Positions 213 to 44,942 of a stretch of 64,000 bases of DNA are shown in pieces. Where the stretch lies: the IMG/VR virus record IMGVR_UViG_3300023112_001138, positions 1-64,000 of that record. The stretch is one strand, 5' to 3'. The position numbers and the translations under genes are program-made. The number at the start of each line of letters is the position of its first letter. Within the stretch, counting starts at the first letter, position 1. The notes beneath the pieces were generated by a model. The model ran no database searches. It was given only the letters and a program-made list of their open reading frames with translations, and was not told the DNA's origin. The stretch is from a virus.

Positions 213-1022
213 ATGAGACCAAGAAATGTATTAACAGAAACAAACAATATGAGAAAGTTAATGGGATTACCATTGCTTAATGAGGACACAGGATCAACTG
301 CTGAGGACGTTAAAAAGAAAGTTTTAAATGAATCTACGATAGAATATGAAAATAACCAATGGTTGGTTATAGAAAAAGAAGATGAGGAACAAGAAGAAGA
401 TGAGGAACAAGAAGAAGATGAGGAACAAGAAGAAGATGAGGAACAAGAAGAAGAAGATGAGGATGTGGTTGAAGAACAAGAAGATTTAGGTGATGGTGAA
501 GATGGTATGGGAGAATCTCCATTGGATCAGGTTGTCGCAGAAGGTAGTTTCGCTAAATATAACATTTCTTTAGGGGATAAAGTTGGTTTACTGAGTGAAC
601 AAGAAACTGAAGTACAAACGTTGAATCGGCATGCAAGAGAATTAGATGATATACTGGACATAGAGGAAGAAAATAGAGAATTAGATGATATACTGGACAT
701 ATTGGAATATGAGGTGGAACAAGCAAAAAATAAAAAATCCGCTCGTAAATCAGAGATAAAAGGAATATTAAAAAAAATAAGAGGAAATAGAAAATTAAAA
801 AAAGTAATTAATAAGAAAGGTAAAAAATTAAATCAATTAGCAAACCAACTAGATGATTTAGAAGATACGGAGGCGTTTAAAGAAAAAAGAAAAAAAATTA
901 TTAGGGATATCTTCTTATCATTATATATGGGTATTGGTGCAATTGTGGTAGGATCTAGTGCTGAGGATATAAAAAATAAAATTAAATTTGGTAGGGAGAA
1001 GGTAAATAAACTTTTTAACTAG
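213..1022 (+). CDS. Acidic putative internal head protein with MRKLMG-type leader
   Basis: 269-aa ORF; leader MRPRNVLTETNNMRKLMGLPLLNE; E/D-rich tract; ATATTTATA at 188-196. Confidence 0.6.
   Translation: MRPRNVLTETNNMRKLMGLPLLNEDTGSTAEDVKKKVLNESTIEYENNQWLVIEKEDEEQEEDEEQEEDEEQEEDEEQEEEDEDVVEEQEDLGDGEDGMGESPLDQVVAEGSFAKYNISLGDKVGLLSEQETEVQTLNRHARELDDILDIEEENRELDDILDILEYEVEQAKNKKSARKSEIKGILKKIRGNRKLKKVINKKGKKLNQLANQLDDLEDTEAFKEKRKKIIRDIFLSLYMGIGAIVVGSSAEDIKNKIKFGREKVNKLFN
378..449 (+). repeat. 18-bp tandem repeat x4 (GAAGATGAGGAACAAGAA; EDEEQE)
   Basis: Four perfect in-frame copies; also a 27-bp duplication (RELDDILDI) at 636-662 and 675-701. Confidence 0.9.
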
Positions 1023-1035
1023 AAAAATAACCAAC

Positions 1036-1239
1036 ATGAAAATCAAAGAACATTTAAAGGAACATAACCTATCTTACTTTGGTCATATGAAAGTAGCCTT
1101 ATGGTTTGCGTGGACATTTACACAAGTTGTAATGGCGGCATTATGTCATGGGATAATCCCATCGACATATAAAACATATTGCAGTGACAAAGTTAAAGAA
1201 GTATATAAAAAAATAACCCAAGATAAAGAAAATGATTAA
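1036..1239 (+). CDS. Small protein, DUF6356-like
   Basis: EHLKEHNLSYFGHMKVA...HGIIP pattern recognised by eye. Confidence 0.55.
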   Translation: MKIKEHLKEHNLSYFGHMKVALWFAWTFTQVVMAALCHGIIPSTYKTYCSDKVKEVYKKITQDKEND

Positions 1240-1284
1240 AACTTTTAATCATTTTAATATATTTATATAATAAATTTACTATAC

Positions 1285-2157
1285 ATGAAAAAAATCATAA
1301 AATTAACCGAAAACCAGCTTAATAAAATTGTTAAGAGGGTATTATCCGAATCATATGAAGGTGGAGCAATACAACAACAAGATAAACCTTGTGATATATG
1401 GTGTAAAATAAAATTGGCAAAAACAGGATCAAATGGTGATGTTGTTAAAATGATACAACATTTATTATCACATGGTGGGTATAATAACAAGTACCTTGGT
1501 GGTGGTATGGAAGGTGGATGTGGAAAAGAATGGCAAAAATGTGATGGTAAATATAGAAAACACACCAAAGATGCGGTATTAGAATTTCAGAGAGATAATA
1601 ATTTAAAACCTGACGGTGTTGTTGGGTATGATACATTATCTAAAATATGTGAAGTATTAAAAGTAGCAAATAGTGCCGATAATAGTAAACAGATATTATG
1701 TACTAAACAGTGTAATTGTGATGATAAACAAAGTCAAAAAGATAATCCACCATTATCAGGTGACCCTGTTCGTAAGCGACCTAGAATTGGTGATGAGTTT
1801 CCACCAGAAAAATTCGTTGATGATGGTAACTGGTGGGATGTTATAACTGACCCTTTAGAAGATATATGGGATTGGATAATTACACCAGCTCCTGGTGATG
1901 GAAATAGTGAAGGGAAAAATTGTGATAAAGTGAATGATTGTGTAAAATACGCAATGGGTAAAGATATTAAAAATTGGGAATTCTTTCTTGCTTGTATAGG
2001 TAAAAAAATTAAAAACCCAATCACCGATCAACCATCCAAAGAAAATTGTAAAGGTTGCCCTTCATGGACTAATCGAATGCCTGGTCCGGGACAGAAACCA
2101 ATGACTCCATTCATTGAATCGTGTGTTAGGAGGGGTTGTACTAAAATGGCGTTTTAA
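1285..2157 (+). CDS. Peptidoglycan-binding (PG_binding_1-like) Cys-rich protein with LTE-type leader
   Basis: GSNGDVVKMIQHLL...DGKYRKHTKDAVLEFQRDNNLKPDGVVGYDT; leader MKKIIKLTENQLNKIVKRVLSE; ATATTTATA at 1259-1267. Confidence 0.75.
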   Translation: MKKIIKLTENQLNKIVKRVLSESYEGGAIQQQDKPCDIWCKIKLAKTGSNGDVVKMIQHLLSHGGYNNKYLGGGMEGGCGKEWQKCDGKYRKHTKDAVLEFQRDNNLKPDGVVGYDTLSKICEVLKVANSADNSKQILCTKQCNCDDKQSQKDNPPLSGDPVRKRPRIGDEFPPEKFVDDGNWWDVITDPLEDIWDWIITPAPGDGNSEGKNCDKVNDCVKYAMGKDIKNWEFFLACIGKKIKNPITDQPSKENCKGCPSWTNRMPGPGQKPMTPFIESCVRRGCTKMAF

Positions 2158-2241
2158 TAATAGTGGTAATCTGAGGGGTTGGCAACATAGAAATACGTTA
2201 TTTGTTTAGATATTACTCAGTTACCTTTTTACTACATAGTA

Positions 2242-2443: not shown

Positions 2444-2842
2444 ATGGGAAGATTAGATAAATTAAAACGACAAGCGATACAAGAGTCAAACAAAAGAAAT
2501 CTTGGTATTATTAATGAAGATCAAATGGGTGGTAATATAGATGATCTAGAGGATGATATAGTTTCTTTAGAGGATGATATGGATTCTATAGTTATACCTG
2601 TGGAAGATGAATTTGTGGGGTTAGAGGATACTGTGGAGGTTGAAGTGGATCCCTATGAAATACCTGTAGAGATGCTATTTAATGGTATTGATACTGGTGA
2701 TGTAAGTCAAGTAGAATCTGGAATATCTCAGATAGATATGCCATTAGAAAAAGAATCTGCGATATTAAGATTCGCTAAATTGATCGATGCGGATTCATAT
2801 GATTTACATAGGGTTGCAGATAAATTAGATTTAGAATTATAA
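2444..2842 (+). CDS. Acidic hypothetical protein with MGRLDKLKRQ leader
   Basis: 132-aa ORF; leader ends GIINE; ATATTTATA at 2418-2426. Confidence 0.65.
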   Translation: MGRLDKLKRQAIQESNKRNLGIINEDQMGGNIDDLEDDIVSLEDDMDSIVIPVEDEFVGLEDTVEVEVDPYEIPVEMLFNGIDTGDVSQVESGISQIDMPLEKESAILRFAKLIDADSYDLHRVADKLDLEL

Positions 2843-2846
2843 TATT

Positions 2847-3002
2847 ATGGGAAGATTAGATAAGTTAAAACGACAATCAATGAGAGAAGCCAATAAAAGG
2901 AATTTGGGTATCATCAAAGAAGAGGGTGATAAAGATATCACTGTTGGTAAAAGTGATATGGATAAACACCTAAGAAGTGATAAAGGAATAGGTGGACTAT
3001 AA
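2847..3002 (+). CDS. 51-aa paralog sharing only the leader of 2444..2842, not in ORF track
   Basis: MGRLDKLKRQSMREANKRNLGIIKEEGDKDITVGKSDMDKHLRSDKGIGGL*; first ~25 codons closely match the upstream gene. Confidence 0.7.
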   Translation: MGRLDKLKRQSMREANKRNLGIIKEEGDKDITVGKSDMDKHLRSDKGIGGL

Positions 3003-3079: not shown

Positions 3080-3391
3080 ATGAAAATCAAGAAAAACGGT
3101 AAAACAGTTAACTTATCAGAAACAGAAGTTAAAAAAATTGTTACCAAACATAAGATAAATAAATTTCTTAACGAGCAATACAAAAAATCTATGAGGGATA
3201 AAGTTCATGATTTATGTCAGCAATATGAAAATTTTGTTAAACATAACGTTGGTGATATTAGTAAGATAAATGATTCTAAGTTAGAGAGTATTTTTAGTAA
3301 AGTTAAAACCGCAATGTTATCTAACGTTGAGGAGGTACAAAAAGAAATTGCAAGAGAAATAGATGAACCAAGAAATGAAAAAAGTAATTAA
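3080..3391 (+). CDS. Hypothetical protein with KKNGK..LSE leader
   Basis: MKIKKNGKTVNLSETEVKKIV...FLNE; ATATTTAT at 3039-3046. Confidence 0.65.
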   Translation: MKIKKNGKTVNLSETEVKKIVTKHKINKFLNEQYKKSMRDKVHDLCQQYENFVKHNVGDISKINDSKLESIFSKVKTAMLSNVEEVQKEIAREIDEPRNEKSN

Positions 3392-3516: not shown

Positions 3517-4755
3517 ATGGAACATAAAAAAAGAATAAACGAAACGAATTTTATGCGGAGAATGATGGGGTTACAACCTATCAACGAAGGAATTGGTGTA
3601 GATGCTGTTGATCAAGAGCAAATGCAACTAGTAAGTAATGTAATGACACCGGATGGGGCTACTGTTGCTGGTATTAGTACAGTAGCATTTAAAGATTCTG
3701 ATGAAGGTAGAGAATGGATGTCAGGAGACAAAAAAGAATTATCTGGAGAAAGATTAAAAAATGCTACTCAGCAAACTTTAGACACTGATAAAAAAATAGG
3801 TGGTTGGAAAATTAAAGATCAGGGTGATGCGATAACTATTGAAGATAAAAGGGGTGTATTTTTCAGGGTAGATACAGTTACGAAGGGGAACCCTAACTGG
3901 GCATATGTTGCCACACCTTCATCAAATTACGATGGATATGATAATAAGGACGAAGATTTCATTGATGGTATCGGTCAATCATTTCAAACATATGAGGAAT
4001 ATGCAACTTGGATAAGAGAAATATTATCTAAATATTCACCTAGTGTTGTGGGAACTACAAAACCTAAAATAGGTAAATTTGTGTGTAAAAGAGATTTAGA
4101 TTTCAATTGGTTTTTTGATGAGTTAAAAATTGGTGAAGATTATCTAAAAAAAGGTGATTGTGGTGTAGCAGTTGAGGTGGCTCAAGATCATATAAACGAG
4201 TATGAAGGTTCTGAAGTAATAAAAGTTGATGGTAAATATGGTACCGATACTATTAGTCAAGTTAAAGTGGTACAAGCTGAATTAGACGATGTTAAAGCTG
4301 ATGGTTATTACGGACAAAAAACATACGAAGCAATAGTTAAAGCACTTTGGGATGATATGGAAAGAATAACCCCAAAACCACCTAAAATGATTGACACTGA
4401 TATTGACACTGATATTGACACTGATATTGACACTGATATTGACACTGATATTGACACTGATATTGAATCAGATTTTGATTTTGATAGAGATGTTAAAGGA
4501 GGCGGTGCTATCCCCAATATAGATATAGAAGATTTTGAAGCGGTTGAAGATGAGTTTGAGAAAAAAGCTAAGGCTAAGGCAGAAAAACGAAGTAAAAAAG
4601 GTAAACGAAAACTTAATAGAATAAATAAAAGAAGTTCTAAACTTAAGAAAAGGTATAATTTTGAAGAACAAAAAACTTTTAAAGTTAAAAAGAATGGTAA
4701 AGTAATTACATTAACTGAAAGTGATGTTAAAAAAATTATTAACCTAAAAAAATAA
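3517..4755 (+). CDS. Peptidoglycan-binding domain protein with an N-terminal leader and a C-terminal LTES tag
   Basis: LKKGDCGVAVEVAQ...VDGKYGTDT...ADGYYGQKT; N-terminus MRRMMGLQPINE; C-terminus KVKKNGKVITLTESDVKKII. Confidence 0.7.
   Translation: MEHKKRINETNFMRRMMGLQPINEGIGVDAVDQEQMQLVSNVMTPDGATVAGISTVAFKDSDEGREWMSGDKKELSGERLKNATQQTLDTDKKIGGWKIKDQGDAITIEDKRGVFFRVDTVTKGNPNWAYVATPSSNYDGYDNKDEDFIDGIGQSFQTYEEYATWIREILSKYSPSVVGTTKPKIGKFVCKRDLDFNWFFDELKIGEDYLKKGDCGVAVEVAQDHINEYEGSEVIKVDGKYGTDTISQVKVVQAELDDVKADGYYGQKTYEAIVKALWDDMERITPKPPKMIDTDIDTDIDTDIDTDIDTDIDTDIESDFDFDRDVKGGGAIPNIDIEDFEAVEDEFEKKAKAKAEKRSKKGKRKLNRINKRSSKLKKRYNFEEQKTFKVKKNGKVITLTESDVKKIINLKK
4390..4466 (+). repeat. 12-bp tandem repeat x6 (ATTGACACTGAT; IDTD)
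   Basis: Six perfect in-frame copies plus a partial copy. Confidence 0.95.
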
Positions 4756-4889: not shown

Positions 4890-7800
4890 ATGAGTAAATC
4901 CGAAACCGTTAAAAATAAATTTGTTGATTATGTCGTAAGGGATATGATGAATGATATTACAATAGAAGAAGAGTTTATTCGGTTTGGAATGTCCTACAAC
5001 GGAACCCCGGAAGGTATATTCTACGATTACGAAGAATGGTTTGATTCGGGTGATCGATTTGATTATATGAATTATGAGGAAAGTTTTATTTCTGATTTAT
5101 CAATATTAATCCGAATACACCTAGCCAATGCTTATGGAATACCTTGGGAAGATAGTAAAACTGATGTTAGTGTTTCACCTATATTATTAAAGTTATATAA
5201 TATAATATTAAAAAAAGTGCATCACCTTTGGGGTCGCAACAAACGGTTAAATGAATCCAAAAAACATGCGGCAGATTCTATATTTATGAAAATAGATAAC
5301 CCTAAACAACATAAATTCTTTAATAGAATAGCAGATAAGGTTGTTGAATTGGTGGAAGTAAGAGAAAAGGAAGGATGGGGAAAATCTATATTTTTAACTG
5401 ATTTACTGGATCCTAGGTTTCCTGGTCAAGGGACTAGTTTACCCCGACGGGAAGGGGGTTATTCTGACTATCAAACATTCGTCTCAGATATGACACCAAC
5501 GATGCCCGATTTTTTTCCTATGTTAGAAAATTATTGGTCCATAGATGATGTATCTGTAAATATTTTTATTATAGTTAAATTTATATACCCTAAGTTATGG
5601 AATAATTTTTACAAAGGTGAAGATCGCCCAGAAGAGTCCACTGATTATGGGGAAAGGGCATTAGATTATGGGGAAAATAAGGAAGAGGTAAATGAATCCA
5701 CAAGTAAAGAACAAAAATTAATCGATGTAGTAACTAAAGACTTATTGAAAAATACTAGACTGTCAAAAAGTTATTCGTTTAACATTTCCCACAACAAAGG
5801 GGTTAGGACAGTTAAGTTACCTAATGGACTTTCGGACTGGAATTCTTATGATCTACAAACAACAGATGATGCACCCTATACGATAGGTCAATATATGGTA
5901 GATACATATGGATTAACTACCGATGAAATTAAGGGGGTATGGTTAAAATATAGAAATAAATTAATAAATACGTTAGAAGATAATGACCCAAACCCATCTA
6001 TTGTTATGGGTGAATCTGAATCTAAAAATAATCTTGAAAAATTAATTAATAAACTCTATAAAGAAATATGGGGTTATCTTATTACCAATAAAAATGAGGT
6101 ACATTTAGACTTACCTTATTTTAAAGATTTAAAGTCTGATGCCCAAATCACTTATGACCCTTATCGTCAAGATATTGGAAATTTTAATAGTAATTTTATA
6201 CGTGGGGAGTTAGAAAGATTTGTCGCGTATCACCTCTATAAAACTATGGATATTGGGGAGAAGTTACAATTCCGAAATTATGACCCCATGGTTAAACCCA
6301 TTGCAGAAAAACTAATTAAAAGTTTATATAAAGAAGTGGTTGATAAAGGTTTTGTGAAATCTAATCAGGTGGAAGAAAAAAAATACAATTTAAGTGAAAC
6401 TATAATGGATGATATTCCTTTAGAACAATTTAAAAAAGATAATCCGGAAGTAGTAGAAATTTTAAATAGGTTTCCCGAACCACTCCAAAGAGAATTAGCG
6501 GTAGAAAGAAAAAACCCAAAAGAATTTGTGGAAGAACATGGTAATTGGTATGTTAGAGATAAAGACCAACCCCTTAAAACTATGGAAATAAAAAACATCT
6601 TAGATGATGAAGAAACCAAAGGTATTGTTAGTAGAACCCCACAAGAAGTTGTAGATGCCATTAATACCCAATGGGGAACTAATTTTGTTGGTGGTGAGGT
6701 TTATGATCCAAATCCTGATAGATATTTTAAGTATGCTGATTTACCTGCCGAAACTGCCGATCCCTCAGTAATGGTAAATTATGATATTATCTATGGTGTT
6801 GGTAGATTGGTGGCGGCATTAATACGAGGAGATAAAACTATTAAGGTATGGGATATTGTAGATAAGAAAGAAAATTTAAACGAATCAGTAGATTGGTCAG
6901 ATAAAAAAGGTAATAAATACCATAGAAATGGTATGGTTAATAGAATTGTCGATGATTTCCTAAAAATGACTGAGATAATGGATGAGTCTATTAAATTTCA
7001 TATGAAACAACACATTATTAATAACCTACGTAGACATAGGGACCCTTACCTTATCTATGTTTATGATGAAAATGGGTTAAGTAAAGAAAGTAAAGATTTA
7101 CTTTATGAGGGACTTACTAATGGTGTGCAGTGGTACATGGAGCAAACCGGGTTAATAAATTATCACAACACATATGATAATACTCGACCACCTGAAGATA
7201 TAGAATTACTTAAAATGGTTGTAGATACTTTATACCCTATTATAGTAAAAGGGATAGTGGACTATAATGAAGATGAGGAATGGACAATGGATACATTATA
7301 TGATAGTAAATTTTTGGGGGAATCTACTGATAAACAAGTGCAATATGTAAATTATATAATAAAACATTTAATGGACAATACTAAGTGGTGGGATGCTTCT
7401 TTTAGTGTGCTACTTTTAAATAATGACACACCTATTACCACCTATATAAATTATGGAGATTTTGTATTGGTTAAACCGACACAGGTGGTAGATATATTGA
7501 AAGGGTTCGGGGTGACCGAACAAGAAGAGAAGAGGATTTGGACCACTTATAGTCGGTGGGTATTAGAAAAAGTTATGAGAGAAGGTAATATAGATTGGCC
7601 CAATAAAGAAACACATAAAAAGAGATACCCGTTTTTAGTCGAATCCACAGATATTACTACTAAGTTTGTAGAAAAAATACCGGATATAATCAGGGAGTCA
7701 TCAGTACCTAAATACTTAGATAAAATATTCAATAGTGTTGTTAAAGAAATTAGATTTGATGTTGATAAGTATGGGGCAGTTGTTATCCCATTTATTAGTA

Positions 7801-9197
7801 AGGAAAGGTATAGTAGTTCTACCGGAGGATTAGAAACCCAAGAATATACATTATCCAGACATGATAGGAATACAGAATTACGAGATGGGGGGATATTACA
7901 TAGTGAATTTAAATCTTATTTTCATAAAATTTATGGGTTATCAGAAGACGAATCTAATGAGTTATTTAGGTTAGTTAAACAATATATTAAAGATGAATTA
8001 TATTATAAATCTGTTTTAGATCAAATTTTACAATCAGTGCAAGATGACTATATTCAAGGGTATGGAACCACTATAGAGGTTACCCCTGAAATATCATTCG
8101 ATTTAAAAAAATATAGTGACTTCAAAGAATACGTATATTGGTGGCATAGTATAGTTGACCCCGATGATTATGGAGATGGTTCTGCAGATATTACTGATAA
8201 CATGGTTAAAAAGTTATATGATGATGTATGGGATACATTAAAAAATACTATTACTTTAAATGAAGGGTGGCCAGCAGATCCCGAATTAGATGAAGAAGGA
8301 AACGAAAAATGGGGTAGAATGTTTCCCGATAAGTTTTATCTAAAAATATTTAAGATGATAGATAAAGATCCGGAATTTTTTATGTCGGATACATTACTAA
8401 ACTTAGGTTTCGAAGGAGAGGAAGAGTACGACATACTTTATAATTATTTTGTTAACTATTCTGATAGAAAAGATTATTACATAGATTTTACAATTGATCC
8501 AGACGATATCGCTTCGTTTTTTGATGATAGTGATTATGATTTGGAGAAAATGGTTAAGGGTTTATTAGAAGGTGACTGGGATTATCATGGGTGGTATAAT
8601 GAATCCTTTCCATTTGATGATTATATGTTGGATTATATAGATGATAGAAGTTGGGGAGAAATTGCAAAAATATTAGAGGTAGATAATATTACAGATGCAA
8701 AAGAATTGATGAGTGGGGATATTGGAAGTGAACATTTAGAATCCCATTATGAATTAATGGAAATGAGAATCGATGATGTTCAGAGTATAATCGCTCAGTC
8801 CACGACCGAAGCACAAGCAGATGCGGATATCTCTTATTTACATGACGATATAATGGATGAAGTAAATGACTGGTTTAAACATGGGGAATTTAATTTTGGT
8901 GAAGGGGAGTTTGTAGGTAGAATAGAAGTAGGTGATGTAATGAGTGGAGAAAAAGGCTTATCACAATTAGAAGCTGATTTAACACAGGGTTACCCCACTT
9001 TTACGGAGTTAGTTCATGATGTACTCTCTGAGGAATTAAATGACTGGGGTTATACTGACGATTATATATTTGTAGGAAGTGAAAAACCCTACATTAATAC
9101 TGACAAACATTTTAGATATGGTGGTGCGGGAACTATAAATAACCAACATTTTAATGATATGTTAGTGGAAAGATTAAGTTGGGAATACTCGGAATAG
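4890..9197 (+). CDS. 1435-aa modular protein (putative polyprotein) including a ParB/Srx-like module
   Basis: Modules separated by LNES, VNES, MGES, LSET, LNES, LGES, LVES, IRES and LNEG; repeated (Y/F)G(L/I/V)xxxE motifs; PSVMVNYDIIYGVGRLVAALIRGDKTIKV; two TATTTAT boxes at 4866-4883. Confidence 0.7.
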   Translation: MSKSETVKNKFVDYVVRDMMNDITIEEEFIRFGMSYNGTPEGIFYDYEEWFDSGDRFDYMNYEESFISDLSILIRIHLANAYGIPWEDSKTDVSVSPILLKLYNIILKKVHHLWGRNKRLNESKKHAADSIFMKIDNPKQHKFFNRIADKVVELVEVREKEGWGKSIFLTDLLDPRFPGQGTSLPRREGGYSDYQTFVSDMTPTMPDFFPMLENYWSIDDVSVNIFIIVKFIYPKLWNNFYKGEDRPEESTDYGERALDYGENKEEVNESTSKEQKLIDVVTKDLLKNTRLSKSYSFNISHNKGVRTVKLPNGLSDWNSYDLQTTDDAPYTIGQYMVDTYGLTTDEIKGVWLKYRNKLINTLEDNDPNPSIVMGESESKNNLEKLINKLYKEIWGYLITNKNEVHLDLPYFKDLKSDAQITYDPYRQDIGNFNSNFIRGELERFVAYHLYKTMDIGEKLQFRNYDPMVKPIAEKLIKSLYKEVVDKGFVKSNQVEEKKYNLSETIMDDIPLEQFKKDNPEVVEILNRFPEPLQRELAVERKNPKEFVEEHGNWYVRDKDQPLKTMEIKNILDDEETKGIVSRTPQEVVDAINTQWGTNFVGGEVYDPNPDRYFKYADLPAETADPSVMVNYDIIYGVGRLVAALIRGDKTIKVWDIVDKKENLNESVDWSDKKGNKYHRNGMVNRIVDDFLKMTEIMDESIKFHMKQHIINNLRRHRDPYLIYVYDENGLSKESKDLLYEGLTNGVQWYMEQTGLINYHNTYDNTRPPEDIELLKMVVDTLYPIIVKGIVDYNEDEEWTMDTLYDSKFLGESTDKQVQYVNYIIKHLMDNTKWWDASFSVLLLNNDTPITTYINYGDFVLVKPTQVVDILKGFGVTEQEEKRIWTTYSRWVLEKVMREGNIDWPNKETHKKRYPFLVESTDITTKFVEKIPDIIRESSVPKYLDKIFNSVVKEIRFDVDKYGAVVIPFISKERYSSSTGGLETQEYTLSRHDRNTELRDGGILHSEFKSYFHKIYGLSEDESNELFRLVKQYIKDELYYKSVLDQILQSVQDDYIQGYGTTIEVTPEISFDLKKYSDFKEYVYWWHSIVDPDDYGDGSADITDNMVKKLYDDVWDTLKNTITLNEGWPADPELDEEGNEKWGRMFPDKFYLKIFKMIDKDPEFFMSDTLLNLGFEGEEEYDILYNYFVNYSDRKDYYIDFTIDPDDIASFFDDSDYDLEKMVKGLLEGDWDYHGWYNESFPFDDYMLDYIDDRSWGEIAKILEVDNITDAKELMSGDIGSEHLESHYELMEMRIDDVQSIIAQSTTEAQADADISYLHDDIMDEVNDWFKHGEFNFGEGEFVGRIEVGDVMSGEKGLSQLEADLTQGYPTFTELVHDVLSEELNDWGYTDDYIFVGSEKPYINTDKHFRYGGAGTINNQHFNDMLVERLSWEYSE

Positions 9198-9933: not shown

Positions 9934-10053
9934 ATGAAAATTAGAAGAGGTTCTATTAGATTAACTGAACAAGACTTGTTAAACTTAGTTAAAAAATTAA
10001 ATGTTAAAGTAACACCCCAACAAAGTGAGTTAGTCTTGGAATCAAAAAAGTAA
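9934..10053 (+). CDS. 39-aa leader-only micropeptide, not in ORF track
   Basis: MKIRRGSIRLTEQDLLNLVKKLNVKVTPQQSELVLESKK*; has its own ATATTTATT box at 9896-9904. Confidence 0.6.
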   Translation: MKIRRGSIRLTEQDLLNLVKKLNVKVTPQQSELVLESKK

Positions 10054-10144: not shown

Positions 10145-10669
10145 ATGGAAATTATCATTAGAAAAATACTTAAAGAAGAAACCCAAAAACCTAAACTTAA
10201 TGATATCATATTAAAAGATTTATTAAAATCTTTTAATAAAAATACAATGCTACGAGATAATATCAGTGGAGATATTAATGGTATGTTATTAAAAGATGTT
10301 GATTTTTATCAATATGAAAGATTACTAGATATGGTAAATAGCGTATTACTACCACATATTGATAAAACTTATGATTTAAACATTGGAAAAGATAATGATC
10401 TTTTACAACCAATTTATTTAAAGTGGATAAGGGAAATGTATGGTGATGGAAGTTATCCACTACCTGGAGATTTGATAGAAATGGTAGAGATGGCGGGGGA
10501 TGACTTAAACCCAATCCCTACTGGAACTAAAGGGGTTGTAACTTCGATTAAGAGTCATAATTTTAATGGTGTAGCCGAAGAACATTTAGATGTCAATTGG
10601 GAAAATAAAAGGTCATTAAGAGTTTTACTCCCACACGACAAAATAAAAATTATTAGTAGAAATATATGA
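10145..10669 (+). CDS. Protein with IRKILKEE leader and C-terminal DUF4314-like domain
   Basis: Start moved to the ATG at 10145, after ATATTTATA at 10131-10139; GDLIEMVEM...PIPTGTKGVV...VNWENKRSLRVL. Confidence 0.65.
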   Translation: MEIIIRKILKEETQKPKLNDIILKDLLKSFNKNTMLRDNISGDINGMLLKDVDFYQYERLLDMVNSVLLPHIDKTYDLNIGKDNDLLQPIYLKWIREMYGDGSYPLPGDLIEMVEMAGDDLNPIPTGTKGVVTSIKSHNFNGVAEEHLDVNWENKRSLRVLLPHDKIKIISRNI

Positions 10670-11148
10670 GGTTCCTTATTAAAAAAATATTAAGAGAGGG
10701 GTATAGTGAAGGTATTAATGACTATAAAAAAGTACAATCACAAGAACACGAAGAATATTTCACCAACAAAAAAATATTACCTTTAATAATAAAATATTTA
10801 GATAGTATCATTAATATAGATATGATCGTTAAATCGAATGAAAATTCTACAACATATACTGTTTATTTTGATGATGTAGAACCTATCGCTAAACATTATT
10901 GTTATGGGTGTAGTGGTACATTCCATTACCCTACAGGTACACACGATATATACACTATGTCACATGCGGAAGATAATGATCAATTTACTAGTGCAGTAGA
11001 AGGTGCGTTAATAGATATGTTCGGTGGTGAACTAAGTAACATGGAATTTTATAGTTTAATTTATAAATATTTATTCGATATAATAAAAAAATATATGGAT
11101 AATGATATGGTTATCAATTATCCTGAAGAACACGATATGGATTGGTAA
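10666..11148 (+). CDS. Hypothetical protein with IKKILRE leader
   Basis: MRFLIKKILREG; ATGA overlap with the upstream gene. Confidence 0.65.
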   Translation: MRFLIKKILREGYSEGINDYKKVQSQEHEEYFTNKKILPLIIKYLDSIINIDMIVKSNENSTTYTVYFDDVEPIAKHYCYGCSGTFHYPTGTHDIYTMSHAEDNDQFTSAVEGALIDMFGGELSNMEFYSLIYKYLFDIIKKYMDNDMVINYPEEHDMDW

Positions 11149-18160: not shown

Positions 18161-18231
18161 ATAAAATTTTTTTATTAATAACACTATATTTATAATATAA
18201 AATAACATACTTTATAAAAAACATTAATAAT

Positions 18232-36072: not shown

Positions 36073-38010
36073 ATGGCAAAAAAAACAATATTTCAACAGT
36101 TAGGAGACTTATTTGGTCCTGAGATAAGTCAGAAACAAAGTAAATCCAGATATTCATTAGGTAATGAAGAATTACTTAAAACACAATCTAAAGAAGAATA
36201 CGATCATAAAAAGTTGCAAATGCAACAAAATAAATATCTTTCTGATATGTGGTCTAAGGTTGATAATGAGATATATCAGCACTCGATATATTATGAAACT
36301 ACACGATTAGCTTCATATGCAGATTTTGAAGGGATGGAATTTTTCCCAGAGATAGCAGCGGCATTAGACATTTTTATGGAAGAATCTACAACTCAAAACG
36401 GGGAAGGTAGAATTTTAAACATATTTTCAGAAAGTAAAAGAGTTAAAAGAATATTACAAGACCTATTTTTTAATAGGTTAGATATACACACAAATTTACC
36501 TATGTGGGTAAGAAACACATGTAAATACGGTGACAATTTTTTATTTTTAAATATAGATGGTGAAGAAGGTATAACCAACGTAAAACAATTACCCAATATA
36601 GAAGTAAGTAGAAAAGAGAATGATGGGTTCGGTGAAAATTCTAGTCTTGAAACTGAGGATAAATTTAACCCAGTTAAATTTGTATGGAGTAATAAGGATA
36701 TAGAATTTAATGCTTGGCAAATAGCACATTTTAGATTATTGGGTGATGATAGGAGATTACCTTATGGTACGTCAGTATTAGAAAAAGCGAGAAGAATTTG
36801 GAAACAATTACTTCTATCTGAAGATGCAATGTTAATATATAGAGTAACTAGGGCACCAGAAAGAAGGATATTTAAAATATTTGTTGGTAATATCGATGAG
36901 GCAGATGTTCCAGCATATATTAATAAAATTGCAGATAACTTTAAAAGAAGTCCAGTTATAGATCAAAAAACAGGTCAAATAGATACTAGATATAATCAAA
37001 TGGCTCAAGATCAGGATTATTTTATACCTGTTAGAGACCCTAACGCCCCTAGCCCCATAGATACTCTTCCTGGTGCAACTAACTTATCAGAAATTGCAGA
37101 TATACAATACCTACAGAAAAAATTGTTTACAGCTCTTAGAGTACCTAAACCATTTTTGGGTTTCGAGGAGGTGACTGGTGAAGGTAAAAATTTAGCACTA
37201 CAAGATATTAGATTTTCAAGGACAATAAATAGAGTACAACAATCGATAATACAAGAATTAAATAAAATCGCAATTATTCATTTATATGTTTTAGGATTAG
37301 AAGATGAATTAGAAAACTTTACGTTGTCACTTAACAACCCTTCTACTCAAGCGGATATGTTAAAAACTGAACAAACTCAATTGAAGGTAACTCTTTATAA
37401 GGATGCAGTATCAGATGCAGGTAACGGTTTTGGTGCGTATTCTATGACTAGAGCTAAAAGAGATATTTTAGGGATGAGTGAAGAAGAAATAAGAAATGAT
37501 TTAGAACAACAAAGAATGGAAAAAGCTGCATCTGCAGAAATGGAACAAACTTCTACTATAATTAAGAAGACTGGTATATTTGATAGGGTAGATACTTTAT
37601 ATGGTGAATTCGGTACAACACCAACTAACGCAGCTGGTGAAGAAGGTGGTGATGACATGTCCGGTGGAGATGAATCATTCGGTGGTGGGTCAGACTTTGG
37701 TGGTGGCGGGTCAGACTTTGGTGCTGAAATGGAAGGTGGTGCAACCGCAGAAGCGGGAGCTGAAGCTGGTGCAGCAGAAGCACCGGTAGAATCTACAAAT
37801 AAGAAAGGTGATTTAATAGTAGAGGAAAATAAATCCAAACTAACTAATAAAACCAAAAAATATCAAAACATTTATTTAAAAAGATTAATTGAGAGTATAG
37901 ATAACGATCAAAACATAATTAATGTGGATAATGGTGTAGAAAGCATAAATTCTAAGATCGAACAAATGTCAAAAGAGATAGATGGTTTAATACGAGACGA
38001 AGAAAAATAG
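36073..38010 (+). CDS. Portal protein (T4 gp20-like)
   Basis: PEIAAALDI; PYGTSVLE; EDAMLIYRVTRAPERRIFKIFVGN; IDTLPGATNL; YLQKKLFTALRVPK. Confidence 0.95.
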   Translation: MAKKTIFQQLGDLFGPEISQKQSKSRYSLGNEELLKTQSKEEYDHKKLQMQQNKYLSDMWSKVDNEIYQHSIYYETTRLASYADFEGMEFFPEIAAALDIFMEESTTQNGEGRILNIFSESKRVKRILQDLFFNRLDIHTNLPMWVRNTCKYGDNFLFLNIDGEEGITNVKQLPNIEVSRKENDGFGENSSLETEDKFNPVKFVWSNKDIEFNAWQIAHFRLLGDDRRLPYGTSVLEKARRIWKQLLLSEDAMLIYRVTRAPERRIFKIFVGNIDEADVPAYINKIADNFKRSPVIDQKTGQIDTRYNQMAQDQDYFIPVRDPNAPSPIDTLPGATNLSEIADIQYLQKKLFTALRVPKPFLGFEEVTGEGKNLALQDIRFSRTINRVQQSIIQELNKIAIIHLYVLGLEDELENFTLSLNNPSTQADMLKTEQTQLKVTLYKDAVSDAGNGFGAYSMTRAKRDILGMSEEEIRNDLEQQRMEKAASAEMEQTSTIIKKTGIFDRVDTLYGEFGTTPTNAAGEEGGDDMSGGDESFGGGSDFGGGGSDFGAEMEGGATAEAGAEAGAAEAPVESTNKKGDLIVEENKSKLTNKTKKYQNIYLKRLIESIDNDQNIINVDNGVESINSKIEQMSKEIDGLIRDEEK

Positions 38011-38050: not shown

Positions 38051-38824
38051 ATGAATAACTTTGGAAAAATAAAAGATACCTTTAACTTAATTCTAACAGA
38101 ATCTATCATTAAAAAAGATAGTGAAGGTAAAAAATTATTTATTAGTTACTTGAAAGAACTAAAAGAAAACAAATCATTAAAATCACAATTTTTACTATAT
38201 AAGAATTTAAGTGATAAAAAATTTATTAATGAGTCTGATGCCAAATACTATATTAAAGAAAATATCGAACTATTAAAAAAATTAGATAAAAAAGAAATTA
38301 ATAGTGGGTCAAAAAAATTAGTATCTTTATTAGAGGGTAAAGAATTAGTTAAAGAAAATATAGAATTATATAACCATATTAATGTATTAGTAGAAACTAA
38401 AAAAACAGCTTCCTCTATAGATAAAATTCAAGAGTCAATTAATTTCATCACAAGAAAGATGATGGAAGTAGATGAAGAAGAAGTTGAACAATATGAATCT
38501 CTAAATTTACCACCTAGTGTATTAACTAAATTGGCAATTAATAGATTTAATTTAAAATATTCAGATATTACAGAAAGTGAAAAAAAAATAATCAAATCAG
38601 TTTTAAACGGCACAGATGAAAACAAAGAAGATGTGTACGTAAACCTTAAAAAAGAATGTATTGATTTAATCGATAGTAAATTAAATGAAAATACTGATTT
38701 GGATATGAAAGATAAGTTACTCAGAGTAAAAGACAAACTATTGAGTATGGCTTATAATCCAGATGAATATGTTGGTGACATCGATAAGGTTTACCAACTT
38801 AAACAATCAGTGGCCACTGATTAG
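38051..38824 (+). CDS. Hypothetical helical protein of the head module
   Basis: 257 aa between portal and protease; LTES, INES, IQES, ITES sites; ATATTTATT at 38030-38038. Confidence 0.65.
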   Translation: MNNFGKIKDTFNLILTESIIKKDSEGKKLFISYLKELKENKSLKSQFLLYKNLSDKKFINESDAKYYIKENIELLKKLDKKEINSGSKKLVSLLEGKELVKENIELYNHINVLVETKKTASSIDKIQESINFITRKMMEVDEEEVEQYESLNLPPSVLTKLAINRFNLKYSDITESEKKIIKSVLNGTDENKEDVYVNLKKECIDLIDSKLNENTDLDMKDKLLRVKDKLLSMAYNPDEYVGDIDKVYQLKQSVATD

Positions 38825-40118: not shown

Positions 40119-40811
40119 ATGTTAGAAATATTAAAGAGTAATGAAGTAAATAAAAAAGGTATTCTTGTAGAATACGATTCAGGATACATCTCTCCAAAAG
40201 ATAATAAACATTTTATTAATGAGGTAAATAAATTAACCAAGGGTGGAACAATAGTTGAAACTCCTTTGGTTGTTTATGCTGTAATGCAGAAATATGGTGT
40301 TGAGAATAAGAACGAAAGGATATACCCTGAAAATATTTTAAGAAGAGAAGCAGAAAACTACCTTAAACTAATTAACGAAAGAAGAGCAATGGGTGAGGCA
40401 GATCACCCGGAGAGTTCAATAGTATCGATAAGTAGGATTTCACATAATGTCACAGAATTATGGTGGGAGGGAAATGTCCTAATGGGGAAATTAGAAATTA
40501 TAATGTCACCAGGATTTGTCAACCAAGGGATTATTTCTTGTGAAGGAGATTTAGTTGCTAATTTACTACGTAATAATTTAAAGATGGGTGTATCTTCTAG
40601 AGGTGTAGGTTCCCTGGAGAAGGAGCATGGTAAAAATATAGTTCAAGATGACTTTGAATTAATATGTTGGGATGTGGTAACATCACCGTCAACTCCCGGT
40701 TCTTGGATATATAATAGAGAACCAAGTAAGGAAGAACAAATGGCAGAATCTAAAGATAATTCTGATAAGAATTTACTTATTGGTTCTTTAGATGATTTTT
40801 TATGTGACTAA
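40119..40811 (+). CDS. Prohead core protease (T4 gp21-like)
   Basis: NKNERIYP; GEADHP; RISH; GVSSRGVGS; WDVVTSPSTPG; ATATTTATT at 40094-40102. Confidence 0.93.
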   Translation: MLEILKSNEVNKKGILVEYDSGYISPKDNKHFINEVNKLTKGGTIVETPLVVYAVMQKYGVENKNERIYPENILRREAENYLKLINERRAMGEADHPESSIVSISRISHNVTELWWEGNVLMGKLEIIMSPGFVNQGIISCEGDLVANLLRNNLKMGVSSRGVGSLEKEHGKNIVQDDFELICWDVVTSPSTPGSWIYNREPSKEEQMAESKDNSDKNLLIGSLDDFLCD

Positions 40812-40922: not shown

Positions 40923-42251
40923 ATGGCTACAAAAAGAAAATCAATCATCGAAGAGGCTTTGCTAGAAGCTAAGTCTTTAGAGGATGCCTTAAAAGCCAAT
41001 ACGAAAGAAATACTTGCCACTCATATGAAGCAAGAAATTGAGAGTATCGTAGAGTCGTCTCTGAAAGAAGAAGACGAAGAATTTGAAATCGATATAGAAG
41101 GGTCCGATGAAAATGAGGATGGAATGTCAGTTGACGATGTTGTAACTGGAGATGATTCTGAAGAACTAATTAATTTAGATGCATTTACTGCAGATGAAGA
41201 AGGTGACGCAGAATTGGAATTAGATCTTGATCTTGATTTACCTGATGACGGTGAAGAGTCAGATATTGATGTTTTGGAATTACCTATGGATTTATTAGGT
41301 GGTGATGAAATAGATTTAACTGGTGCACCCGATGATGAAGTACTTAAAGTTTTCAAAGCAATGAGCGATGATGACGAAGTAGAAGTAATCAAAGATGAAT
41401 GTGGAATTCACTTAACAGATAACGAAACAGGTGCTGAGTATTACATTAAGGAAAGTATGGAAGAACTGGATGGAATGGCAGAAGGTTGTGATGACTCTTT
41501 GGAAGAAGGTTGTGAAGAATTGGAAGAAGAAACCATTTATGAAATAGAAATGGATGATCAAGGATACGATGATAAAGAAGATGAATCTTTAGGTATGAGG
41601 ACCGGTAAGGAACTTGAAGAAGAAGAATCATATTCAGATCGTAGAGAAGATTCTTACGGAAAATGGGGGGATCGTGACGATGAATCTTTGGAAGAAGATC
41701 ATACACTTGCTAGGACTAAAGGATACCAAAGAAAAGGTGGACATAGAAATAGGCAAGAAGAATCTCGTAAACCACGTAAACCAATCTCTGAAAGGAGAAA
41801 TTCACGTAAACCAATCTCTGAAAGGAGAAAAACACCTAAGAATGTAAGCAAAGTAGCTGACTCTAAAATAATGAAAGAATACAAAGAACTTAAGAGTAAA
41901 AATGAAGAATACAAAGGAGCTCTTAACGTATTCAAAGATAAACTTAATGAAGTTGCTTTATTCAATACAAATTTAGCATACGTAAATAGATTGTTTACTG
42001 AACACTCTACCACTAAAAAAGAAAAAATGAGCATCTTAAAGAGGTTCGATGAAGCTGATAGTGTTAAAGGTTCTAAATCTATTTATAAAACTATTAAATC
42101 AGAATTGGATCGTAAATCACCAATTACTGAATCAGTAGAGAAGAAAGTAAACAGAACTGTTAAGTCATCGGCTTCAGATTTAAACGAATCTACAGCATAT
42201 GTAGATCCACAAATCGTAGCGATTAAAGATTTAATGAAAAGGATATCATAA
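40923..42251 (+). CDS. Prohead core/scaffold protein (functional equivalent of gp22)
   Basis: Lies between protease and capsid genes; acidic and coiled-coil; many (I/L)-x-E sites; C-terminal DPQIVAIKDLMKRIS; ATATTTATT at 40847-40855. Confidence 0.8.
   Translation: MATKRKSIIEEALLEAKSLEDALKANTKEILATHMKQEIESIVESSLKEEDEEFEIDIEGSDENEDGMSVDDVVTGDDSEELINLDAFTADEEGDAELELDLDLDLPDDGEESDIDVLELPMDLLGGDEIDLTGAPDDEVLKVFKAMSDDDEVEVIKDECGIHLTDNETGAEYYIKESMEELDGMAEGCDDSLEEGCEELEEETIYEIEMDDQGYDDKEDESLGMRTGKELEEEESYSDRREDSYGKWGDRDDESLEEDHTLARTKGYQRKGGHRNRQEESRKPRKPISERRNSRKPISERRKTPKNVSKVADSKIMKEYKELKSKNEEYKGALNVFKDKLNEVALFNTNLAYVNRLFTEHSTTKKEKMSILKRFDEADSVKGSKSIYKTIKSELDRKSPITESVEKKVNRTVKSSASDLNESTAYVDPQIVAIKDLMKRIS
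41774..41830 (+). repeat. 27-bp direct repeat (RKPISERR x2) in the scaffold gene
   Basis: ACGTAAACCAATCTCTGAAAGGAGAAA twice, 30-bp period. Confidence 0.85.
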
Positions 42252-42283
42252 TAATAATAATATAAATTAAAACTCAAAAAAAA

Positions 42284-44035
42284 ATGGGACATTTATTAAA
42301 CTCAGGTGAAGTCGGAAATATCGGACTTGAACACTTGAAACAAATAAGATCTAAAACTATTTCGAAGTGGAACAAAATTGGTTTCCTAGAAGGTTTAAAA
42401 GGTCACGTAAGAGAGAACATTGCTCAGTTATATGAAAACCAAGCATCGGCTCTTTTAAACGAATCTACGAGTTCAAACTCATCAGGTTCATTCGAAACAG
42501 TTGTTTTTCCAATTGTAAGGAGAGTATTCTCTAAATTATTGGCTAATGACATCGTTTCAGTACAAGCTATGAATATGCCGATTGGTAAATTATTCTTCTT
42601 TGTACCGAAAACAACTGGTAGGAATCATGCAGCCTTAAACGGACCAGCATTGTCAAATCAGGAATGTGTATTTTCAGCTTGTGGTGGTAACACACTATCA
42701 GTATTTCAAGAAAAGAATCTTTATGATATCTTTTATAATGATGGATTATTTGATGCGTCTAAAGGACAATCAACACTATTTTCGGATGGTGGAATTGATC
42801 CAGTTATCTTAAGTGCAAACGGAGAATCCGTTTCAACAATATTTGCTGATCAACCTTTAGCGGCTGATGGTAGTATGAGAAATTTAACTTTCTGTATTAC
42901 TGGATTTACTGGTACAGGTGCTGGTAGAATGGTTGGTGCAGATGGTAATGAAATGGATACTGAGGCTTTCTTAGCTTCATTACACATAGTAAATGGTTCT
43001 GACCCAATTATGGCTGGTGACGGTAGTGGTAATGTAGTTATTGCAGCCAATGCTAACGTACCATTTAGATTAGTAGCACAAAAATATGGAAAAGGTATTG
43101 TCGATTACGGTGATATTTGTACTCCAGCAGGTTGTTTACTAGTTGAAGTGGATCTTACAACACCAGCTTGTGTTAGTTGTAGTGCTAATACCTTCGATGG
43201 TTACATTGGTGGTAGTGACGCAACAACATCAGCGGCAACATTCAGTGTAAACTGGATGACATATGCATCTTTAGAATATGCAACTGAAATGGGTGAGGTA
43301 TCATTCGAACTTGATGAAGTTGTTGTTTCTGTAACAGAGAGAAAGTTGAGAGCAACTTGGTCTCCTGAACTAGCACAAGATGTTAGTGCATTCCATAACA
43401 TTGATGCTGAAGCTGAATTAACGGCTTTATTATCTGAACAAGTAGCAGCTGAAATCGACAGAGAGATTCTTAGAGATTTAAGAGTAGGTGCAGCTTGGCA
43501 ATTGAGATGGGATTACAATGGTTGGAAACGAACTGCTAGTGGTGGTTTCAACGCTTACACTCAAAAAGAGTGGAATCAAACGTTGATTACTAAAATTAAT
43601 CAGTTATCAGCTCAAATTCATAAATCAACTCTAAGGGGTGGTGCTAACTTCGTAGTAGTATCTTCTGAGATATCAGCTATTTTTGATGACTTAGAATACT
43701 TCCACGTATCAAATGCGGCTCCAGAGCAAGATCAATACAACATGGGTATTGAGAAAGTAGGTTCATTAGGAGGACGTTACACAGTGTATCGTGACCCTTA
43801 CGCACCAGCTAACTCAATAATTGTTGGACATAAAGGAAAATCGTTATTGGATACTGGGTACATTTATGCACCTTACGTACCATTACAATTGACTCCAACG
43901 TTACAAAACCCATTCAACTTCGCACCAACGAAGGGGATAATGACAAGATACGCTAAGAAAATGGTTAATAACCGTTTCTACGGAGCGTTGACTGTTGATG
44001 GTGTTGTTACATTTGACATCAATGAGTTGAGATAG
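42284..44035 (+). CDS. Major capsid protein (T4 gp23-like)
   Basis: PIVRRVF...VSVQAM; RKLRATWSPELAQD...AFHNIDAEAEL; EIDREI; YAPYVPL; GIMTRY. Confidence 0.97.
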   Translation: MGHLLNSGEVGNIGLEHLKQIRSKTISKWNKIGFLEGLKGHVRENIAQLYENQASALLNESTSSNSSGSFETVVFPIVRRVFSKLLANDIVSVQAMNMPIGKLFFFVPKTTGRNHAALNGPALSNQECVFSACGGNTLSVFQEKNLYDIFYNDGLFDASKGQSTLFSDGGIDPVILSANGESVSTIFADQPLAADGSMRNLTFCITGFTGTGAGRMVGADGNEMDTEAFLASLHIVNGSDPIMAGDGSGNVVIAANANVPFRLVAQKYGKGIVDYGDICTPAGCLLVEVDLTTPACVSCSANTFDGYIGGSDATTSAATFSVNWMTYASLEYATEMGEVSFELDEVVVSVTERKLRATWSPELAQDVSAFHNIDAEAELTALLSEQVAAEIDREILRDLRVGAAWQLRWDYNGWKRTASGGFNAYTQKEWNQTLITKINQLSAQIHKSTLRGGANFVVVSSEISAIFDDLEYFHVSNAAPEQDQYNMGIEKVGSLGGRYTVYRDPYAPANSIIVGHKGKSLLDTGYIYAPYVPLQLTPTLQNPFNFAPTKGIMTRYAKKMVNNRFYGALTVDGVVTFDINELR

Positions 44036-44060
44036 TCTTAGTTAGATTATAAGTAACTTT

Positions 44061-44093
44061 AAAAGGGGTGGATTTATTTCTACCCCTTTTTTT
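44061..44093 (+). terminator. Rho-independent terminator after the major capsid gene
   Basis: AAAAGGGGTGGA-tttatt-TCTACCCCTTTT followed by a T run. Confidence 0.8.
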
Positions 44094-44129
44094 GTTTTAT
44101 AAGATATTTATTATTAAATTAGAACCAAT

Positions 44130-44942
44130 ATGAGGATTAAGAAAAAAGATGTGTTATTAGAAGCTCAATTAATAGATACTACTTCCGAATTTACCCCACA
44201 AGAAAAAAGATTGTTAAAAACATTAAAAAAGAAGTTTGGTAAGGGGGGTTATGACTCTGATTATGACAGATTTGTTGGTGCAGCATTTTTAATTGAGGAC
44301 ATGGGGATTCCTTATGATCAAGCATATGACTTATCTTTAACTCATTGGTGGCATGGAGATAAATTATATCAAGAAGTTGATCCAATCTATAAAAAAGAAG
44401 ATAGAGGGTGGCTTTATAGAAAATTAATACATCAGCTATTATCACCATATATAGAAGGTAGGGGTGAAACAATTGGCGATGCCACCATAACATGGGAAGA
44501 TCCTAACCATATAATTTCACAAAAAGATTTATTTACTGTTAAAGAAAGTGTTACATTATGGTCCGGAACTTTGGGGTTTACTTTATACATCCCTTTTAGG
44601 GGGAATATTTTGGGGATACCATCAAGTGACGTGATTCACGGCGTGAGGCACCGTTACGATATCTCAGATAAAAATACTCTGATGGTGTATATTAAATTTA
44701 TACCATACGATGAAAAAGGTCACCCTAAAATGGGTACACATGTTAAGTTTGATGTAAAATATGTTGTTGGGGATTCCACGATGAGGCATGAAAATAATAA
44801 TGAAAAAAATATGATGAGTTTTGATATTCCTATTCCCTCCCCATTAGATAAAGATAATATGTATAAAATTTTTACTGACTCTTTAAAGGATGTATTGGAG
44901 AAAATAGAAAGTATGACTTTTACTTTAAACCCACCTGAATAA
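44130..44942 (+). CDS. Hypothetical protein with a leader ending VLLE
   Basis: MRIKKKDVLLEAQ; ATATTTATT at 44104-44112. Confidence 0.6.
   Translation: MRIKKKDVLLEAQLIDTTSEFTPQEKRLLKTLKKKFGKGGYDSDYDRFVGAAFLIEDMGIPYDQAYDLSLTHWWHGDKLYQEVDPIYKKEDRGWLYRKLIHQLLSPYIEGRGETIGDATITWEDPNHIISQKDLFTVKESVTLWSGTLGFTLYIPFRGNILGIPSSDVIHGVRHRYDISDKNTLMVYIKFIPYDEKGHPKMGTHVKFDVKYVVGDSTMRHENNNEKNMMSFDIPIPSPLDKDNMYKIFTDSLKDVLEKIESMTFTLNPPE

Follow-up and report, generated by a model that had tools for sequence, protein, structure and literature searches.

We identified a set of short N-terminal leaders that are shared by otherwise dissimilar proteins of an uncultured T4-type jumbo phage. The stretch of DNA analysed (hereafter, the window) comprises the first 64 kb of one 74,146-bp virus contig with a G+C content of ~30% (IMG/VR record IMGVR_UViG_3300023112_001138), which is a fragment of the phage genome. 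Approximately 17–20 proteins in the window, rather than the "more than 20" of a preliminary description of this DNA, begin with one of four leaders, designated types A to D, and the carriers are otherwise dissimilar past residue 35. The leaders are under selection at the protein level, are common to unrelated cargo throughout the clade and, judged from sequence, end in the hydrophobic-x-E (h-x-E) consensus of T4-type prohead proteases. We give roughly an even chance to the reading that they work like the capsid-targeting sequence (CTS) of phage T4, in an expanded form with several classes: each would first address a protein to the prohead and then be clipped off. We infer that each leader would dock its protein onto the scaffold or core (or shell) while the prohead assembles, and that the gp21-type protease (40119-40811) would then cut after the glutamate of h-x-E, with a preference for L/I-[NT]-E before S, A, T or N; mature cargo would thereby be set free within the head and be delivered together with the DNA.

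The leaders are 11–31 residues long and have a hydrophobic residue at P3. Type A may be described as a short strand followed by LTE and an amphipathic helix, with the consensus M-K-I-K-L-T-E-x-Q-h-K-R-h-h-x-E, in which leader residues T6 and Q9 are near-invariant. Types B and C may be described as amphipathic helices, and both were found exclusively at N-termini. A type A hidden Markov model (HMM) run over six frames of the 74-kb contig gave 8 N-terminal matches of 7–26 bits, compared with a maximum of 4.2 bits for reversed sequences, and recovered all eight genes previously listed as type A (1285, 3080, 9934, 12964, 15405, 16535, 18232 and 33335; genes are named here by their first position). 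The carriers and their leaders are as follows (the bar marks a putative cut).

Positions 1285-1350, plus strand: type A leader of 22 aa (LTE at 6-8, end VLSE; 22.7 bits) of a 290-aa PG_binding_1 protein (1285-2157).
Positions 3080-3175, plus strand: variant type A' leader (KKNGKTVNLSE..., end FLNE; 7.1 bits) of a 103-aa protein (3080-3391); the leader of its orthologue in the relative G3 is clear.
Positions 9934-10050, plus strand: 39-aa mini-ORF, nearly all of it a type A leader (IRLTE ... LVLE|SKK; 21.0 bits).
Positions 12964-12999, plus strand: type A leader (21.0 bits) of a 312-aa protein (12964-13902).
Positions 15405-15455, plus strand: type A leader of 17 aa (end LLNE; found with the type A HMM) of a 279-aa SleB-type hydrolase (15405-16244).
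Positions 16535-16582, plus strand: type A leader, ISE variant (end LLKE; 9.2 bits), of a 541-aa protein with a weak LRR match (16535-18160).
Positions 18232-18396, plus strand: 54-aa gene with a type A leader (16.4 bits) and four h-x-E sites, followed by a very basic RKPVS-repeat tail.
Positions 33335-33382, plus strand: type A leader (25.8 bits) of a conserved 281-aa protein (33335-34180) directly upstream of the large terminase gene.
Positions 10145-10177, plus strand: type B leader (IIRKILKE) of a 174-aa protein (10145-10669).
Positions 10666-10698, plus strand: type B leader (LIKKILRE) of a 160-aa protein (10666-11148).
Positions 11148-11180, plus strand: type B leader (LIKKILKE) of a 365-aa protein with a weak M78 peptidase match (11148-12245).
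Positions 14166-14204, plus strand: type B leader (IKKILLE) of a 264-aa protein (14166-14960).
Positions 213-284, plus strand: type C leader (MRKLMGLPLLNE) of a 269-aa protein (213-1022).
Positions 3517-3588, plus strand: type C leader (MRRMMGLQPINE) of a 412-aa PG_binding_1 protein (3517-4755).
Positions 18416-18478, plus strand: type C leader (RMRKLMGFTYE) of a 460-aa protein (18416-19798).
Positions 27123-27215, plus strand: type C-like leader (RITDLMSRMTTLNE|ST) of a conserved 631-aa protein (27123-29018), whose orthologues show the motif clearly.
Positions 2444-2921, plus strand: type D leaders (MGRLDKLKRQ ... IINE / IIKE) of two tandem paralogues (2444-2842 and 2847-3002).
Positions 25919-25972, plus strand: degenerate type A leader (RLKEQEV ... 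AKE) of a 263-aa nucleotidyltransferase-like protein; orthologues have RRLTEEEV.
Positions 29421-29486, plus strand: degenerate type A leader of a 172-aa protein; orthologues have IRISESEIKR ... KLME.
Positions 30674-30739, plus strand: degenerate type A leader of a 470-aa protein; orthologues have IRITESQLKK.

The N-termini quoted in the preliminary description were found where it had placed them, and the motif lies 2–21 residues into the stop-to-stop frame, so these are true N-termini. The carriers proved unrelated, as had been claimed: past residue 35, BLASTP gave no mutual match at E<=1e-3 among the tested proteins (>75 aa). When N-terminal 30-mers were compared with internal 30-mers of the same proteins, 24 N-terminal pairs had an ungapped 10-mer score of at least 30 (4.9 expected) and 8 a score of at least 35 (0.45 expected). 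Ordinary domain starts (Rossmann, sulfotransferase) account for a few of the pairs, and the rest match the proposed classes. The type B core (10145, 10666, 11148, 14166) was present as four copies, and type C was seen directly in 213, 3517 and 18416 and by way of orthologues in 27123. Type D (2444, 2847) is just a tandem paralogue pair in the window, but a relative bears it on another cargo. Among the looser assignments, 29941, 32202, 44130 and 12634 showed no common leader in the N-terminal 30-mer comparison, and 25919 and 30674 have no clear leader of their own but have orthologues with clear type A leaders. The DUF192, PG_binding_1, SleB-type Hydrolase_2 and nucleotidyltransferase matches were reproduced, the LRR and M78 matches being weak, and the glycan and host-type genes (45 to 74 kb) were free of leaders in the HMM scan. 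In the 18232 protein, the RKPVS repeats echo RKPIS(ERR) repeats of the scaffold protein, and clipping would leave a very basic peptide of 17 residues.

We further checked the occurrence of the leaders in relatives, which are plentiful in IMG/VR (TerL identity of 54–100% across 80 loci) and include two complete genomes of 322 and 353 kb, a 198-kb relative (G1, CheckV completeness 60%) and a 127-kb contig syntenic with the window (G3, L081-L087). Among ~2,200 non-identical proteins of the clade, a sample enriched in part by a leader pattern scan, 169 proteins in 54 cargo clusters carried a type A leader, and types B, C, D and E were present on 8, 4, 2 and 3 cargo clusters, respectively. At least 120 stretches in IMG/VR matched the leader codons (MKIKLTExQ). 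In the TerL-flanking loci of relatives, a type A regular expression matched 55 times at N-termini and 7 times internally, densities 66-fold apart. Complete or large relatives have 3–16 type A genes apiece; some of these are small genes that follow one another, as at 36-44 kb of the complete 322-kb genome (G006), an arrangement reminiscent of the variable region of T-even phages that encodes internal proteins. The leader of the 33335 family is near-invariant (M1, K2, I3, L5, T6, E7, Q9 and E16) and the following 180 residues drift. The leaders differ from one another by synonymous codons, which shows that selection acts on the leader peptide; a cause at the DNA level, such as a translation or promoter element in the coding start or gene conversion, was rejected for the same reason.

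Cultured phages are only distant kin of this clade, with a capsid protein identity of ~42% to Flavobacterium phage immuto over the C-terminal half; the host probably belongs to the Bacteroidota. The type A HMM gave nothing convincing in immuto, Microcystis phage Mel-JY01 or two huge-phage genomes (one of 595 kb), and tblastn of leader proteins 33335 and 15405 against 50,697 cultured phage records gave no match. The type A leader thus appears to be clade-specific, as it is absent from the nearest cultured T4-like phages (immuto and Mel-JY01) and from the 595-kb huge phage.

Two observations in relatives concern the leader repertoire itself. A fifth class, type E (EIERIKSLF; M-E-K-x-I-x-E-E-I-x-R-I-K-S-L-F-x-E-E-R-L-Y-G-N), occurs in relatives and is absent from the window; it is found on unrelated proteins beside tail sheath and tube genes (L086:13285-13728 and 17509-18390; G1 76498-77355). 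In addition, a 586-aa protein (L023:5751-7511) begins with a type A leader and has another, complete leader at residue 309, where the orthologue of the 33335 protein is joined on, so that the protein is a natural fusion of two leader genes and accounts for one of the seven internal matches.

These data bear on the possibility that there is no leader system at all, and that the shared starts arise from the codon bias of AT-rich N-termini, from a strand-cap-helix start of a frequent kind or from hidden paralogy. A GC content of 30% would by itself favour MK(I/K) starts and helices rich in K, I, N and E, many helices are capped by S/T-x-x-E, and generic h-x-E occurs at background frequency. Such an origin is nevertheless largely refuted and highly improbable, given the separation of HMM scores from reversed sequences, the N-terminal excess of the motif, the synonymous codon variation, the 54 cargo clusters and the lack of similarity past residue 35.

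The link to the prohead protease draws in part on the head genes, which lie downstream of 33335.

Positions 34223-36019: large terminase (TerL).
Positions 36073-38010, plus strand: Portal_T4 portal protein.
Positions 38051-38824, plus strand: candidate prohead-core protein, a conserved, helical 257-aa protein between portal and protease, with conserved h-x-E at 15-17, 173-175 and 211-213.
Positions 40119-40811, plus strand: prohead protease, Peptidase_S77 (T4 gp21 family; Pfam PF03420, 79 bits).
Positions 40923-42251, plus strand: acidic scaffold protein with conserved ITE|S (E403) and LNE|ST (E422) and a type C-like C-terminal helix, IKDLMKRIS.
Positions 42284-44035, plus strand: Gp23-type major capsid protein with conserved LL[NT]E|[SAT] (codon of E60 at 42461-42463).

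In an alignment with T4 gp21 (5JBL), the 40119 protease has kept the catalytic His (DHP) and Ser (GVSSRG). Peptidase_S77 is encoded by a single gene per genome and was detected in every relative that was at least 78% complete. All 22 capsid orthologues have retained the motif LL[NT]E|[SAT], the scaffold sites ITE|S and LNE|ST are kept as h-x-E in 33 of 34, and the three h-x-E sites of the 38051 protein are likewise conserved; across these head proteins h-x-E is conserved and P2 and P1' are variable. The previously noted LLNE|S of the capsid protein was found at residue 60 (42461-42463), and E60 lies 10 residues before a block that aligns with residues 27-62 of mature T4 gp23, although E44 and E51 (also h-x-E) fit this alignment as well as E60 does.

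The leaders show the same kind of site at their ends. A second hydrophobic-x-E follows the LTE core at 95 of 98 distinct leader-cargo junctions, compared with 32 of 98 in a control window of equal size, and at 52 junctions it lies exactly 9 residues past the first glutamate; the cargo families diverge beyond the second glutamate. In the 30674 family, every form ends in h-x-E|[AS] immediately before a conserved IEYDP, and two homologues of the SleB-like family have unrelated N-termini ending in LIFE|Q and WINE|N right before the conserved cargo. A position-specific scoring matrix trained solely on the capsid, scaffold and 38051 sites gave matches at a 2.7-fold higher density within the N-terminal 30 residues of other proteins, and the best of these were leader ends, e.g., TLNE|STS (27123 family) and RLTE|AIEYDP (30674 family). 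The refined motif L-[NT]-E-[ST] occurs 12 times in plus-strand late proteins, where 1.04 are expected from composition, compared with 1 in other genes (1.09 expected); in G1, which is mostly non-structural, it is at background (7 vs 7.7 expected). The generic (I/L/V)-x-E used as a criterion in the preliminary description was uninformative, with 22 occurrences per 1000 residues in late proteins and 19 in others. Its observation of shared leaders was thus partly confirmed and its interpretation partly supported: the parts of the cargo-addressing idea that can be tested on sequence fit a T4-like scheme of address and clipping, whereas enrichment of h-x-E in general fails. With the head-site matrix, a conserved YLKRL[IT]E|S in the C-terminal region of the portal (residues ~603-610) also scored high; the T4 portal is not processed.

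The site evidence is shared by a different proposal, in which the protease cuts the leaders and these have no address role, serving for example as pro-sequences that keep enzymes inactive until maturation. Cell-wall hydrolase cargo could indeed harm the producing cell. However, a 16-residue helix is not a plausible inhibitor of 50 unrelated folds, and the T4 protease acts solely inside proheads, implying that its substrates must arrive there first (PMC9026906). We consider such pro-sequences quite improbable.

The address-and-clip reading has a precedent and is not a new idea. The T4 protease gp21 cleaves after L/I-x-E, and a 10-residue CTS loads internal proteins into the core and is then removed (PMC9026906, PMC3012670, PMC5694885). 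The T4 CTS is carried by IPI, IPII, IPIII and Alt (Mullaney and Black 1996, as reviewed in PMC9026906 and PMC3012670), Alt undergoes C-terminal trimming as well (PMC9026906), T4 propeptides have been described in reviews as having affinity for the core (PMC9026906, PMC3012670), and the CTS has been described as a route by which T4-like phages load varied proteins (PMC9026906). The present leaders resemble the T4 system in combining a gp21-family protease with a short N-terminal leader that ends in hydrophobic-x-E on otherwise unrelated proteins, in the presence of the h-x-E motif in the putative capsid propeptide and the scaffold, in cargo that varies between related phages, in a small basic cargo (18232) and in possible C-terminal propeptides as on Alt. 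In sequence, the present leaders appear unrelated to the T4 CTS (MKTYQEFIAE). They further differ from it in forming at least 4–5 classes instead of one, in the greater length of type A with two sites 9 residues apart, and in heading dozens of putative cargo families, among them large enzymes, which reach 1030 aa in relatives, and proteins with domains for peptidoglycan binding or hydrolysis. The principle was thus already known from T4; specific to the present phage are a type A leader with two sites, a refined L/I-[NT]-E motif and, possibly, mimicry of the scaffold tail.

Giant phages of the phiKZ type offer a second comparison, as they too are jumbo phages in which many head proteins are presumably cut after Glu by a gp21-like protease. 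The propeptides of phiKZ, 201phi2-1 and SPN3US are mostly longer than 100 residues, have an S/A/G-x-E or A-x-E motif and are not common to unrelated families (PMC5694885, PMC9026906). In SPN3US the paralogues gp53 and gp54 share identical N-terminal stretches, and phiKZ-type propeptides hold several sites (PMC5694885, PMC9026906). The present leaders differ from these propeptides in their 11–31 residues and in their hydrophobic P3, as in T4.

The type C leader offers a concrete hypothesis on what a CTS binds. The scaffold protein ends in ...LNE|STAYVDPQIVAIKDLMKRIS, and the 27123 family starts with ...RIKDLMGKMSTLNE|STS; in both, LNE|ST separates a helix from the protein body. A loose pattern for this helix matched 43 times in 1,314 proteins, comprising 23 scaffold C-termini, 19 N-terminal leaders and 1 mis-called start, with no truly internal match. 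When an HMM of the 13-residue scaffold C-terminus was used, the 27123-family leader ranked first among 2,150 other proteins. These matches suggest, marginally, that the type C leader resembles the scaffold C-terminal helix. If so, type C cargo would use the contact of the scaffold tail, and the same LNE|ST cut would release both. The coat-binding helices of the P22 scaffold and the cargo-loading peptides of encapsulins likewise recruit a protein inside an HK97-fold shell by a short terminal helix; these are C-terminal and are not clipped off. The likeness of type C to them runs via the scaffold C-terminus of the present phage and is marginal.

Leaders were mostly N-terminal, as the preliminary description had it, with an exception at the end of one gene and a further case in a large protein.

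Positions 4678-4755, plus strand: C-terminal type-A-like copy (KKNGKVITLTESDVKKII; 10.2 bits) at the end of gene 3517-4755.
Positions 4890-9197, plus strand: 1435-aa protein with LNE|S and LNE|G sites.

The 4678-4755 copy represents either a fossil left by the start of a leader gene now lost or a propeptide at the C-terminus, and its DNA also resembles the start of gene 3080. In G3, a protein with a type C leader (L081:2390-3226) has two tandem type-A-like copies at its C-terminus. This finding weakens the plain-fossil reading of the 3517 copy, and the two cases together show that the motif can sit at the C-terminus, as the propeptide of T4 Alt does. The 1435-aa protein looks like either a polyprotein or a gene fusion: its residues 1147-1434 have a counterpart in G3 (L081:8014-8892; 35% identity, E=2e-37) that is encoded by a gene of its own, is 292 aa long and starts with a type B leader, and TLNE|G lies 21 residues upstream of where this homology begins in the window.

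Several observations weigh against a head-directed address that is clipped off. The motif also occurs at C-termini, and the 1435-aa protein with its LNE|S sites has no recognisable leader itself. Some leader genes of G3 occur among the tail genes, both between those for sheath and tube and immediately behind the tube gene; one of them encodes a 1030-aa type A protein that has hydrophobic, glycine-rich segments and ends in a helical tail, and that may be a tape measure or ejection protein. T6 and Q9 are near-invariant though the protease consensus needs just h-x-E, implying that the leader binds some further partner. The scaffold-HMM score of the 27123 leader is 8.8–9.7 bits vs 7.3 bits for reversed sequences, and effectively stems from one family. 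The sole universally conserved type A carrier, 33335, lies at the position of a small terminase (TerS) and has a winged-helix end, and no gp16-type TerS (PF11053) was found elsewhere in the five genomes searched. The association of leaders with the TATTTAT box is likewise limited: the box precedes 9 of 14 leader genes vs 20 of 75 others (p=0.011), and in two relatives the difference did not reach significance (p=0.09 and 0.17).

Further data on 33335 came from an AF2 model (pLDDT 86.5), which consists of a helical repeat domain and a C-terminal winged helix (ArsR/HxlR-like), with a pLDDT of ~64 for the first 20 residues compared with ~90 for the body. Foldseek identified the C-terminal winged helix alone. 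A profile of the family gave nothing significant against PDB sequences and, among 5.8 billion proteins, matched unnamed metagenomic orthologues only; ESM Atlas was uninformative for the 33335 and 27123 proteins. Judged from the model, the protein may be a small terminase or a packaged DNA-binding head protein.

The TATTTAT box is promoter-like and real, being present within 60 nt upstream of 29 of 89 genes vs ~4% expected per oriented 60-nt stretch (188-50392, both strands). The previously proposed link of the box to leaders held for type A, in which all eight genes have it within 60 nt upstream, while the association overall is moderate. The box also precedes TerL, portal, 38051 and protease and is found before no glycan gene; the capsid and scaffold genes have a variant (ATATAAAWTAAA).

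The explanation ranking next after address and clipping, possible though doubtful in our view, is that the leaders are docking helices that stay uncleaved and tie varied proteins to a common virion hub in head or tail, with an incidental likeness to protease sites. It would accommodate the leader genes within the G3 tail module and the possible tape measure among them, the C-terminal copies (4678-4755 and the tandem pair in G3) and the near-invariance of T and Q in LTExQ, neither of which is needed for the protease consensus. However, it leaves unexplained both the hydrophobic-x-E at 95 of 98 junctions and the ability of a site model trained on capsid and scaffold to pick leader ends, and the place of a gene in a jumbo genome says little about what it does.

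We also consider, tentatively and as something rather unlikely, an address code with several destinations and a shared L/I-[NT]-E clip. In such a code, type C and the related type E would copy the scaffold C-terminal helix and ride a scaffold-shell or scaffold-scaffold contact, types A and B would dock onto the 38051-type core protein, and some carriers encoded near the sheath and tube genes would be loaded into the tail. The same clip site would release cargo in every case, polyproteins and C-terminal tags included. If true, marine jumbo phages would be able to load 50 or more enzyme families into their virions by one general, programmable system.

An improbable alternative is that the leaders are tags for another shared partner, i.e., an AAA+ unfoldase, a modifying enzyme or a localisation factor. 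A candidate unfoldase exists: the minus strand at 20477-22954 encodes a conserved 825-aa ClpB/ClpC-like double AAA+ ATPase with Clp_N and UVR motifs, which is preceded by a TATTTAT box and is kept in G3. Such a partner would not account for the motif shared with the capsid and scaffold sites. A radical-SAM partner was dropped, as PF04055 was absent from the contig of the window and from four relatives.

If leaders are indeed addresses that are clipped, a clade of uncultured jumbo phages abundant in marine and freshwater metagenomes carries dozens of enzymes in its heads, including proteins that bind or hydrolyse the cell wall, a nucleotidyltransferase, peptidase-like proteins and small basic proteins that bind DNA. 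A readable tag would then allow injected phage proteins, among them candidates for host take-over and anti-defence, to be predicted from sequence, and the leaders would provide a refined recognition motif for gp21-type proteases as well as new short tags for loading foreign proteins into capsids. A long run of minus-strand genes at 51148-64000, continuing to 74 kb, encodes glycosyltransferase, sulfotransferase, methyltransferase and GDP-sugar functions and bears no leader.

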